Below, in pieces: positions 19,970 to 38,639 of a DNA stretch of 64,000 bases. This DNA is from Chrysomallon squamiferum (lineage: Eukaryota; Animalia; Mollusca). The stretch is taken from contig CM022673.1 of assembly GCA_012295275.1 (NCBI GenBank), forward strand, positions 29,636,001 through 29,700,000, read 5' to 3'. How positions within the stretch are numbered: the first letter of the stretch is position 1; each line of letters begins with the position of its first letter. A program made the position numbers and the translations under genes. The notes beneath the pieces are model-generated. The model was given only the letters and a program-made list of their open reading frames with translations, was not told the DNA's origin and did no database searches.

Positions 19970-20150
19970 AACGTCGCGTCACGTAGACTGGAAACGTCAC
20001 TTCGCGCTTCTCCAGGAAAGATCCTCAGTAATGAGTGCACGGCCAATCACATCTTTGGAAAACTGTGGGCGTTGCTAGGAATAAATTGGCGAACCCCAGG
20101 ACAAGGAAAGCACAAGAACTAGTGTTACGGAACGAAGCAGATCTATAAAA
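19970..20150 (+). promoter_or_regulatory. Putative core promoter of elevenin copy A
   Basis: Two CGTCA (CRE half-site) motifs near 19977-19999, CCAAT at 20043-20047 and TATAAAA at 20144-20150, followed by a plausible non-coding exon. Confidence 0.55.
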
Positions 20151-20173
20151 GACGTTTCCCCTGTTGACATCTG

Positions 20174-20279
20174 CTGAAAGCACTGAACAAACGTCGAACA
20201 GAAGGAGGTCTTTGCTAGTTTGTGGCTTTTCTCTACACTTTCTGGATCGTTATCAAGAGGAGAAAAATAAGCAGCAAAG
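20174..20279 (+). other. elevenin: Putative 5'UTR exon 1 of elevenin copy A (start approximate)
   Basis: Begins ~30 nt after the TATA box and ends at donor AAG|gtattt (20280). The ATG exon has an acceptor only 2 nt before the ATG, so an upstream non-coding exon is expected. Confidence 0.45.
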
Positions 20280-33944: not shown

Positions 33945-35913
33945 GTAAGTATCAATTTTTAAAATGAGAAGATTTTAGTTAAATAAATATACTGTATTTA
34001 CTCGCGTGTATGGCACATCTTGAGCATTGAATTAAAAACAAATTCGTACAAAATTAATGAAATATTCATCCTCGGAAAATAGCTTTTATATCAAGCACTG
34101 AAATTGCTCCCCTGTCCAAAAATCAAACATGTTTCAGATAATTTTACATAAAAACAGCTAAAAAATACCAAGCTTACAAAAATACAATAAAAAGTCAAGC
34201 TTAAGAGAAAAAGCTGAATGGCGCCCATGGAACGTGTCATACTTTCATACTAAAGTACGCCACTGTGTAATACACAGAATGTGTATTGGCTGCACGTTCA
34301 GTGAAACAAGACGTCTGTAAGAAAGTGCGTGTAAAAGATGAGTTTTAGTTAATCAATACGAACAGCAGTAATGATAATAATAATAATAACAACAATGAAT
34401 GAATGAATGAATGATGAAATAGTAGTAGTAAATTTAAATTAAAAATAATAAAATAAAATTATAAATTAAGTAAATAATACAAATCTGTTTGACATTTCCC
34501 TCCCCAACAAAGAAAAATACCATTAAAAATATCTTTTACATTATGACTTGTACCAACCAAAGTATTCTTCTTTTGTAAATATATATATATATATATATCT
34601 GAAAGCTTGTTTACCTTTTTATTAGTTATGTAACGATGACAATATATAATATATATATATACATACATACATCGATTTATAAATTCATACGCACACACAT
34701 ATGTATGTATGTATTTTTGTATGTGTGTGTGCGTGTACGTGTATATATATATATATATATATATATATAGTCATCGTTACATCGTTAATAAAAATGTAAA
34801 CAAAATTTCAGATATATATGAGTGTGTGTGTTTGTGTGTGTGTGTGTGTGTGTGTGTGTGTGTGTGTGTGTGTGTGTATATATATATAAATTATGTAATT
34901 TTATATTATCTCAGAATATTTTAATTTGTCTTATAATGTGTATCATGTTTTCTAAAACAAGATACTAATATACTGTATATCAACATTATAATAATAGTCA
35001 TCTGGTGTTGAAATAACCATGCACTGTCTAAATAGGTAATGTATTAACCTCCGCTGACATTTACTTTTACGAAGTTACTAATCGTGAGTTTGAGAGAAAA
35101 CATCAACAGGTGATTATGTAAAACACGTAAGCCAAAAACATTTGCTAATCAATTGTACCTCTGACCTCCGACTGAACTCTCACAAGTTATCACACACTGA
35201 AATGTTTGGATAGTTAACACAGCATCTACTGACATAAAATTTTATATTTTATTCAACTGGAAGAAGTAGAACTTGCCGAGCACAAAGACCAAACATTCTT
35301 CTCGTATCGGAAATCGTTTCATAATTTGTAGCGTGGACAGTGTTATTTGTGTTTAATGTCGCTTTTATTTGTCTAAAATTCTGTTTATTACGATGCTGCA
35401 CGCGCATATGGATTGTAGTCAGTGACTGGTTTAGAAGACTAAAAACAGTGATATTTATAATTACACGTCCAAACATAATGTCTACACCACGCGCAAGAAA
35501 CAAGTCAAAACACAGAGATCGTAAGATCGATCCTCTTTGGTAGATGGTTCTATGAGTTACTAAAGAGAACGCTCCCAAAAACCGGTCGTGGTTTTCTCTA
35601 TGGGTGAGGTTGTATATAAAACATTTCTGGTCCTGGACGATAAGAGAAAAAGGTTGGATGGCGAAAATGGATTTCCTATCAGTTTTGTACAAAAAAATCA
35701 AAATGTTGAGATGTCAGTAAAAAGACCCAACAAAAATAAAAATGAAAATAAATAAATAAATAAATAATATAATGACAACCCATTCATTCCCTTCGTACAT
35801 ACTTCAGTAACGTCATCAAAGATGTAGCATGTCAGTATAGTTGTCTGTTTCATATATGCTTCAGTTAAAGACACAGCATGTCAGTATAGTTGTCTGTTAT
35901 TTATGCATTTCAG

Positions 35914-35988
35914 GGTTTATGTATACGCACCCAGATGTCGCGGTGTGACAGCGAAAAGAGGCGACCCATCACTTTTAGACACCAGACT
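35914..35988 (+). CDS. elevenin: Elevenin precursor, copy B, second coding exon
   Basis: Acceptor tttcag; (S)VYVYAPRCRGVTA-KR-GDPSLLDTR(L); donor gtaagt at 35989. Mature peptide RKINCSVYVYAPRCRGVTA has the canonical elevenin C-x8-C-RGV-x-A motif. Confidence 0.92.
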
Positions 35989-38639
35989 GTAAGTATTGTC
36001 TTAACTCAAGCGTACAACTTCTGATTTGCTTTGAAATTTTTGTTGTTATTATTACTGTTGTTGTCGCTAAGGTTATAGTTTTTCTAATGATTAAACATGA
36101 CAAAATTAAGTCATGTCTCGACGGGGGCTGATATTTTTCTTTACTCTTGACATCTGTATAAAAAAAAAATTCTGATGAAATACGGATACTGATATTTTGT
36201 AATAATTTACACTTTATCAGATTTGTTTTTTATTTCTGATATATAAAATAATTTTTTAATTAAAGAGAAAATGCCAGCTTTTGCCATTTTTTAATTTTAT
36301 TTTTATAATTAATTATTAGCAAAGATCAATCGCCATAAATAAATAAAGCAAATACTTTGAAGGTTATAAAATATTATTTTTAGATGCTGAATCGTACTAC
36401 AGCATGTACACTTTAAATCAGTTTATTGCTTTCTGAAAATCAGCTTCTTTTTTTTCCCTTTTTTTTTCTTTAAAGTTGAGTCTTGAACGAGTTAATTTAG
36501 TTTAGCAGTTATTTTGTTAGTTACTCCCAGAAGATTGTCAACTCTTCTCATTGCATCAGTTCAGCTATTTCCCGTCCACACCTTATCATCAAAACCTTCT
36601 TTTGTGAACGTGTTGCTTACACACTTTAGACGAACAACAGATAAGACATTACAATGAAAACCACATCTACTTTGTAAAAAATATATAGGAAACGTAATTA
36701 TCTTTGTACATTCGCTACATCTTTTAAACAGTAAGAGAAGTATAATATTTGTGGTATATGATTTATTTTCTACAGGTTTTATATATTTACACATATACAC
36801 AAAAACAACAACACACAAATGCATGCATATACACATACATACATACACACATACACGCACAAACACATACATACATACATACATACACATAAAAATACAT
36901 GTTAAACACATACACACATAGATAGATACATACATAAACATACACACATATATGTACATACATACAAGCACACACATACACATACATACATACATACATA
37001 CAAATTCGCACACACATACACACACATACATATATAAACATACATAGACACCTCTTGTTTATCAGTATGATTAGATGATTAGCAGCCAATCTGATGACAA
37101 CATCCTACACATACTTTTATAAAACACAGACACTTAATAAAAACGTGGCCTTGTACAATTAATCAGTCATTTATTTGTTCATTTATTTGTTCATTTATTC
37201 AAAATAACTTTAACCTTTGCTCGCATATTCACTGACTTGAATCTCACAAAAAAATTAAACATTGACTTTTGGGATTAATCACCAATGAAAAACGCATTCC
37301 ATTCAGACCTTTTGCTTAATATATGCTACGAAACATATTTTTACATCCTTAGTGAACTAATTAACTTTTTATTATCAAGATGAAGGTCTTTTAGTACATA
37401 TGTACACGAAATAAATAATATTATATTTTTCAGAGGAAAAACTTTGTAACGCATTTCACAGTGTGTGTATTAATTTACCTGAACCGGCCTATAACATGGC
37501 AAACAGGCCTAGCAGGAAAGAGTGAATGAAACGCATGACACAGAGATTAATTATATGTATTTTAAAATATAATTTCAGATGTGTTATTTACACTGGTGGT
37601 TTGTGAATAACCAACATTAATATCGAATATCAGTTGAGTTGTATTTCGAGTCTTGGGTTTGTCTAACTAATCTGGGTTTCCATCACAGTGGCTCAGATAG
37701 AATACGACACTGCAAACATCTTGATTAATTAGTACAGCTGTAGTTTATACATTGCATGATAACATTATCTCCGCTTGCTAAGTGTGAGTTCATTTGTGTT
37801 GAGCCGACAGTAACTGTTACCTTATTTATTGTGAACTGTCTAGTAATTGTAATTTTGTTTAAACTGAGCTGTTTAATATCTGTGTTTTTAATTACCTTCA
37901 AATAACTTTATCTCTAATTATTTATTAATTGTAAATTGCTATTTTGAATGTTTAATAAACAGTATATTTATAATTTTGAAAGGTTTAATAGCTGTAAATA
38001 TATTTACCTTGAACTATATGATAACTTTTATTTATGTAAAACGAATATAAGATGAAAAGAAAGGTTAAAAGAAAGTTAAAGAGAAAGAAAAAAGAAGTAT
38101 TGGAAGTAGAAAAATTCTTTCCATCGGTTTAGACTTTAATCTTTGTATCAAACTGATTGACTCAATTAATTCTTTATTTTTATGCTTTGGTTTAAAAATA
38201 AATAAATAAATAAATAAATAAAAAAAAAAAAACGAAACGAAAATCTAAGAGATATTAATTCATACATGCATATAAGTATACATACGTACGTGTGCATGTA
38301 CAGATATATACATGCATACACACCACACTATGAACATATACACATAAATATATAAATAGATACAGTTTGATGTATAGATAGATATTAGATAGATAGATGG
38401 ATGTATTGTTGGATGTACGTATGGTCGATACAGATATACAGATAGAGTGACTGATAGATAGATAGATAGATAGATAGATAGATATGTTATATCACATATA
38501 CAAGTAGTATTTAACAATAAGAGACAATATAATTATGATTACTGGAATGGTTTAAATACATGATTTGTCACTGACGTTAACATATTACTCACAAGCCATT
38601 TTAGTCTATTTATGAAAATTTAAAAAAAGTCTTTGATGT

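Follow-up and report, generated by a model that had tools for sequence, protein, structure and literature searches.

Two versions of an elevenin precursor gene, divergent in the mature peptide, on either side of a scaffold gap in Chrysomallon squamiferum

Introduction

A scaffold gap in the assembled genome of the mollusc Chrysomallon squamiferum is flanked by two copies of the same block of DNA, which raises the question of whether the two are neighbouring paralogues or alleles of a single gene left side by side by the assembler. The block lies in a stretch of 64,000 nucleotides (GCA_012295275.1, contig CM022673.1, positions 29,636,001 to 29,700,000 of the forward strand; hereafter the window, in whose coordinates all positions are given), and each copy, A and B, holds the promoter and the first three predicted exons of a gene that we assign to the elevenin neuropeptide precursors. 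Our answer, a judgement rather than a computed probability, is that A and B are probably tandem elevenin paralogues whose mature peptides have been kept apart by selection. On the same judgement, two alleles of one gene constitute a minority possibility, a patchwork or artefact is very improbable, and any other explanation would be close to negligible. The original prediction had posed the choice as one between paralogues and alleles, and these prove to be the right options.

A duplicated block bounded by a gap

The window is AT-rich (GC mostly 0.27-0.35 per 2 kb) and dense in microsatellites, and its relevant layout is as follows:

20011..28272, + strand: copy A (8262 nt), promoter and exons 1-3 of the elevenin precursor gene, with intron 3 cut by the gap
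28273..28472, no strand: scaffold gap of 200 N, the sole N run in the window; real length may differ
28473..36844, + strand: copy B (8372 nt), promoter and exons 1-3, running on into the single-copy 3' part of the gene
28473..29092, + strand: error-rich start of B; of its 11 indels 10 add a base to B, and most are in homopolymers
29267..29289, + strand: B-only segment of 23 nt in intron 1, from the alignment
36003..36015, + strand: B-only segment of 13 nt, 14 nt into intron 3, with a 4-nt direct repeat on its flanks

A run of 200 N is a placeholder gap length. Aligned end to end, A and B share 8234 positions with 42 substitutions and 45 indels, and megablast gives 97.8% identity over 8368 columns. 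Their homology is bounded at both ends by the gap, no duplication junction is visible in the window, and the flanks tested, the 271 nt that precede A and the 949 nt that follow B, have no second copy within it. The geometry is thus the one claimed earlier, with A ending exactly at the gap and B starting directly after it (28272 and 28473 abut the 200 N), and the two larger differences pointed out at the time are also present and look real: the extra segment of B, put at about 20 bp, has 23 nt and is accompanied by a substitution at 29292, and the 13-bp insertion can be placed exactly at 36003-36015.

The many single-base indels described for the start of B were likewise found, including both of the examples then quoted. 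Eleven indels, ten of them in homopolymers, fall within the initial 620 nt of B, whereas 5910 unmasked nt outside this part contain 10 short ones (Fisher P = 7.5e-7). Those at the start of B are likely to be contig-end errors of a low-coverage tip; away from the tip, short indels still amount to 0.17%. One further difference falls in this part of B: the CCAAT box of A (20042-20048), about 100 nt upstream of its TATA-like box, has one C more than its counterpart in B (28504-28509), and the missing base is probably a tip error.

Divergence concentrated in the mature peptide

Exon structure was predicted from splice signals and reading frame, and for the duplicated part of the gene it reads:

20144..20279, + strand: A, TATA-like box (20144) and predicted non-coding exon 1; putative start site, GT donor at 20280
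28606..28746, + strand: B, TATA-like box and predicted non-coding exon 1
25308..25407, + strand: A, exon 2, with ATG at 25310, hydrophobic signal peptide, first mature-peptide residues (25391-25407) and a phase-2 donor
33845..33944, + strand: B, exon 2, with ATG at 33847, the same signal as A and three nonsynonymous substitutions (33929, 33933, 33934)
27377..27451, + strand: A, exon 3, with the remaining mature peptide (27377-27416; Pro9, Leu15), the KR site and 9 more codons
35914..35988, + strand: B, exon 3, with the remaining mature peptide (35914-35953; Val9, Arg15) and the KR site; nine substitutions relative to A, all upstream of KR

Twelve of the 42 substitutions fall within the 57 nt that code for the predicted mature peptide, where 0.21 would be expected from the rest (P = 3.6e-18); set against the 30 substitutions in the other 8177 nt, this gives a Fisher P of 3e-17. 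Three of the twelve are in exon 2 and nine in exon 3, two exons that lie 2 kb apart, and in 100000 random placements no 40-nt window ever received more than six substitutions, as opposed to the nine in exon 3. At the protein level 10 of the 19 mature residues are changed (1, 2, 3, 7, 9, 13, 15, 17, 18 and 19, numbered from the predicted signal cleavage site), in keeping with the earlier claim that more than half of them differ. B keeps Arg15 and Ala19, and A has Leu15 and Pro9.

Of these peptide substitutions 11-12 are nonsynonymous and 0-1 synonymous (pN 0.265, pS 0.037), whereas none of the 27 residues of the signal peptide and none of the 11 residues of the KR site and tail is changed, nor is there any silent change in these parts. 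Exon 1 is free of substitutions, only three non-repeat substitutions occur in the 1671 nt between exons 2 and 3, and in non-coding DNA as a whole, with repeats and tips masked, 21 of 5737 sites differ (0.37%), a value that pN exceeds about 72-fold. Such a ratio is too high for plain drift since the two copies separated, and divergence confined in this way to the peptide requires strong diversifying selection under both the paralogue and the allele model. A was also considered as a decaying pseudogene, a candidate that was rejected since A has no stop, its cysteines, KR site and splice sites are intact and its synonymous sites are unchanged.

A predicted elevenin precursor gene

In both copies the predicted peptide stands directly after a signal peptide (hydrophobic core peak 3.3, Kyte-Doolittle over 9 residues, with the cleavage site predicted) and is followed by KR at residue 47; its 19 residues fall within the 17-19 range of elevenins. 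Both copies carry Cys5 and Cys14 with eight residues between them (codons 32 and 41 of the spliced frame) together with Ala11, Pro12 and Gly16, which are the marks of the family (PMC9963005; PMC10175484), and position 15, where Arg is usual among elevenins but not invariant, is Arg in B and Leu in A. In both, a phase-2 intron follows Cys5 and so interrupts the peptide-coding sequence, as an intron does in insect elevenin genes (PMC6585902). Elevenin precursors from Aplysia, Lottia, squid and insects agree with the copies described here in the signal, the 19-residue Cys5/Cys14 peptide, Ala11-Pro12, Gly16 and KR, as well as in the poorly conserved tail after KR (PMC10175484, PMC9963005). They differ from A, which lacks Arg15 (93% conserved) and Ala19 (83%), and they offer no parallel in these sources to two versions at more than 99% non-coding identity with 10 of 19 mature residues different.

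Searches with single-exon queries returned no named relative in the protein database, PDB (one chance match), ESM Atlas or Pfam (none above cut-off), so that the assignment of A and B as elevenin precursor copies rests on motif and architecture. One protein search gave 41 matches to its single-exon query, one of them elevenin-like, the unnamed protein P0028 (E = 3.6e-5); most of the others are built from a single short motif over and over, probably represent DNA repeats in translation and were set aside. P0028 (161 residues, from a public assembly) contains a complete elevenin-like motif as well as a further, incomplete one close to its start, and is possibly another elevenin duplication read through its introns.

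The gene continues downstream of B with two exons present in single copy:

39071..39185, + strand: predicted exon 4, phase 2 to phase 0, in frame with exon 3
45888..45944, + strand: predicted exon 5, coding part and stop; AATAAA signals at 46792 and 47384-47445

Exons 2-5 of B form an open frame of 114 residues that ends in a stop, and cysteines, KR site and splice sites are intact in both copies. An 84-bp tandem repeat (39167-39588, 4.9 copies) begins within exon 4 and repeats its last 19 nt and splice donor, which creates four additional donor-like sites.

Tandem paralogues as the probable explanation

If A and B are tandem paralogues, as we think probable, the assembler would have been unable to bridge two neighbouring copies of the elevenin gene, both would lie on one chromosome, and the gap would conceal either the junction of the duplication or the 3' end of A. 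The likeness of introns, promoter and signal would be due either to gene conversion or unequal exchange or to a very recent duplication, with conversion somewhat the better bet of the two, and selection would have driven the mature peptides apart in a sequence that is otherwise more than 99% alike outside slippage-prone repeats. Both precursors would be secreted and cut at KR, each releasing a peptide of 19 residues closed by a single disulfide. The A peptide, in which Leu replaces Arg15, would address another set of elevenin receptors than that of B, and the near-identical promoter and 5' exon suggest that both are produced in the same cells.

The place of the contig break argues for this explanation. 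A near-identical tandem pair would be expected to cause such a break by itself, which 12 single-nucleotide polymorphisms between alleles would not, and since false duplications make up only 0.3-2.3% of three long-read assemblies (PMC9516828 Table 1), a break at this very place would be a coincidence if A and B were alleles. The shape of the divergence points the same way. In the tandem pairs of red/green opsins and of Leptodactylus ATP1A1, a peak of divergence at functional residues with homogenised introns and flanks is the signature of selection against gene conversion (PMC3924837; 10.1101/2020.08.04.234435), and a peak at the selected sites with low flanks, as expected for tandem paralogues under conversion, is present here with a weak shoulder. 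Specifically, non-coding DNA at a distance of up to 100 nt from the changes in exon 3 shows three events (3/160 sites, P = 0.02), which fits a divergence peak under conversion like that of the opsins and the frog genes. In those pairs the tandem arrangement and its age are proven by cross-species data, whereas A and B belong to a peptide ligand gene seen in one assembly alone.

Second elevenins are known from other animals as well. Rhodnius and Periplaneta each have two in a table of 44 elevenin rows (one species repeated), Raphitoma has two (PMC11359391), and in Conus the elevenin doppelganger toxins have an altered mature peptide and, in C. textile, a toxin copy 30 kb from the neuropeptide gene (PMC13542836, PMC13311285), much as the two copies described here are close together and differ in the peptide. 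Unlike these, where most doppelgangers carry a swapped 5' untranslated region with a mean identity of 31% to the neuropeptide transcript and the mechanism of the swap is listed as unknown for elevenin (L11) (PMC13542836), A and B have the same promoter and exon 1 apart from tip errors, so that the replacement common in Conus is not found at this locus. In the available text of these sources, elevenin toxins are reported from conoidean snails only (PMC13311285), and a cephalopod venom-gland survey lists no elevenin among its mimics (10.64898/2026.02.02.703354).

Several observations weigh against tandem paralogy. Neither a duplication junction nor a second set of exons 4-5 is found in the window, and a full second gene would need more than 10 kb within the gap. 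The ends of homology sit exactly at the gap and the tip of B is rich in errors, as in false haplotype duplications, and a divergence of 0.37% is compatible with ordinary heterozygosity, which is 0.22-0.95% in three vertebrates (PMC9516828). Conotoxin E1 alleles can differ at up to 11 nonsynonymous sites, essentially in the toxin region only (PMC2707604). The shoulder of divergence is weak, with P = 0.07 when both exons are pooled and none at exon 2. Finally, the excess of nonsynonymous over synonymous changes within the peptide alone gives P = 0.03-0.26, depending on one codon path, and is not firmly significant; the strong evidence therefore lies in the contrast between peptide and introns.

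A less likely form of paralogy, whose weight is contained in that given to paralogues, is a real partial duplication of the promoter and exons 1-3 with its junction in a short gap, in which case A would make a short precursor or splice onto the downstream exons. The duplicated part has everything required for the mature peptide. In both copies the exon 3 donor is an in-frame stop when intron 3 is retained (27449-27454 in A; 35986-35991 in B), and it is therefore possible that either gives a short precursor holding the whole peptide; in A, where read-through of exon 3 thus meets a stop at once and AATAAA follows at 27787, the peptide could be made without exons 4-5. On the other hand, an overlap of 8.26 kb holding exons 2-3 would also include the TATA box by chance in about 16% of cases, and long reads ought to span a unit of 9-10 kb.

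Alleles or artefact as less probable explanations

The strongest rival to tandem paralogy, though an unlikely one, is that A and B are alleles of one gene: the contigs on the two sides of the gap would follow different haplotypes, their 8.3-kb overlap would have been left unmerged, and the animal would be heterozygous for two peptides that differ at 10 of 19 residues and that, like the variants of a toxin locus, owe their persistence to balancing or diversifying selection. Both boundaries at the gap, the error-rich tip, the single-copy exons 4-5 and flanks, and the nearly equal microsatellite lengths and minisatellite order speak for it. An inter-copy gap on one scaffold and the presence of sequence errors are, moreover, among the signs by which false heterotype duplications are recognised, and where false duplications persist in long-read assemblies, 61-92% of them have both copies on one scaffold (PMC9516828). 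The original prediction held this configuration to be typical either of overlapping contig ends from different haplotypes or of an unresolved tandem array; gap geometry and tip are indeed typical (PMC9516828), but the same marks are to be expected at a collapsed tandem repeat and hence give no preference to alleles. Nor do the 23-nt and 13-nt indels discriminate between the two models. More telling is a feature that the original prediction left without figures, the restriction of divergence to the mature peptide in two separate exons.

A precedent for such alleles is conotoxin E1 of Conus ebraeus, where alleles are set apart by 1-11 nonsynonymous sites and 1-8 residues and by almost no synonymous differences, and where the differences are confined to the mature peptide apart from one change outside the toxin region (PMC2707604). 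E1, however, has been genotyped in 67 individuals and is established as a toxin locus (PMC2707604), whereas A and B are copies of a neuropeptide-family gene in one assembly. Alleles would also require two independent rarities at one place, a receptor-bound ligand whose alleles are hyper-divergent and a contig that happens to break over them; a literature search for divergent neuropeptide alleles under balancing selection gave no case on topic, and the changes in exons 2 and 3 are separated by 2 kb that is nearly free of substitutions. We regard it as doubtful, slightly more so than the allele reading in general, that one elevenin gene carries a toxin-like balanced polymorphism over two exons with A and B as its alleles, one of which combines Pro9 with Leu15, a signature found among the listed elevenins only in bivalves, and is likely tuned to different receptors.

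An origin of the peptide differences as artefact or patchwork, whether from sequencing error, RNA editing or exon patches of a third paralogue brought in by conversion or polishing, is highly improbable, and error and editing were rejected: the region is noisy, with short indels even away from the tip, but the 12 changes are all substitutions that introduce no indel or stop and spare the cysteines and KR, four of them are transversions (C/A, C/G and T/G types) that A-to-I editing could not produce, no third copy of exon 2 or 3 was found within the window, and patches would need to end exactly at the peptide borders in two exons.

Possible meaning of the residue changes

Among the 44 elevenin rows, 42 have Cys-Arg-Gly around position 15 and two have Cys-Leu-Gly, both of them from bivalves (Crassostrea gigas and Mizuhopecten yessoensis) and both with Tyr-Pro like A. 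Position 9, counted by eye, is Pro in 20 rows, Val in 18, Ile in three and Ser in three, and the two Rhodnius peptides differ there just as A and B do. By its predicted peptide B is a canonical elevenin, and since Pro9 and Leu15 are both found among listed elevenins, A appears to have moved among states used by working members of the family. The bivalve elevenins have Tyr8-Pro9 and Cys-Leu-Gly in common with A and an N-terminus unlike it, and the codons of A and B are separated by minimal changes with 0-1 synonymous difference; the likeness of A to the bivalve peptides may therefore be convergent.

Replacement of the equivalent arginine by alanine in Aplysia raises the half-maximal effective concentration from 25 to 130 nM at receptor R1, from 3.1 to 2000 nM at R3 and from 1.2 to more than 10000 nM at R2 (PMC10175484), so that activation is about 5-fold weaker at R1 and about 650-fold weaker at R3, and at R2 the loss exceeds what could be measured. 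By analogy with this other species and other substitution, A, which has lost Arg15, is predicted to prefer receptors different from those of B. As promoter and exon 1 are common to A and B, we favour two co-expressed ligands with distinct receptor preference; an outward-acting role, in saliva, venom or as a pheromone, may also be considered.

Repeats and the rest of the window

Microsatellite lengths in A and B are close (GA 63/59, AC 24/25, TA 15/14), and a minisatellite in intron 1 has its right-hand units in the same order in both:

22961..23812, + strand: 50/56-bp minisatellite in intron 1 of A; B counterpart at about 31463-32345

Whichever model holds, these similarities indicate that the non-coding DNA of the two copies goes back to a recent common ancestor. 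On its left side the minisatellite is regular in A and irregular in B (31483-31680, with partial and fused units), owing either to rearrangement or to local error. Very long GA-rich tracts (up to 162 units) stand just upstream of and within A, at 17648-17972, 19445-19666 and 21319-21444; tracts of this kind can depress long-read coverage, and they may have helped to break the contig. A TATG tract (18681-19029) upstream of the pair and a CATA tract (36822-37046) downstream of it are inverted relative to each other, and A stops where the CATA tract begins; duplication by recombination between the two was ruled out because of this inversion.

No other gene was recognised in the window and Rfam matches numbered 0. 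At 61120-61560, where a short frame (61313-61513) gives weak helix-turn-helix and transposase matches below the Pfam cut-offs, the sequence resembles what we take to be a decayed Tigger/pogo-type element.

Implications

Elevenin, its duplication and peptide-confined divergence are each already known. Four peptide motifs from A and B were not found in the literature searched, and, judged by title and abstract, the literature on elevenin duplication and on divergent neuropeptide alleles held no like case, with most subscription journals lying outside both searches. In practice, the locus is a warning that duplicate purging would remove one of the two versions, and the signal along with it.

Neuropeptides are normally constrained by their receptors, and 11-12 amino-acid-changing substitutions against a background of 0.37% make a pattern of the sort familiar from venoms and recognition peptides. 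As alleles, A and B would represent a conotoxin-like polymorphism in a neuropeptide. If they are paralogues, a ligand would have been caught in the act of splitting into two receptor preferences under a common promoter, which would be directly testable, given that the three Aplysia receptors respond very differently to the loss of the same arginine.

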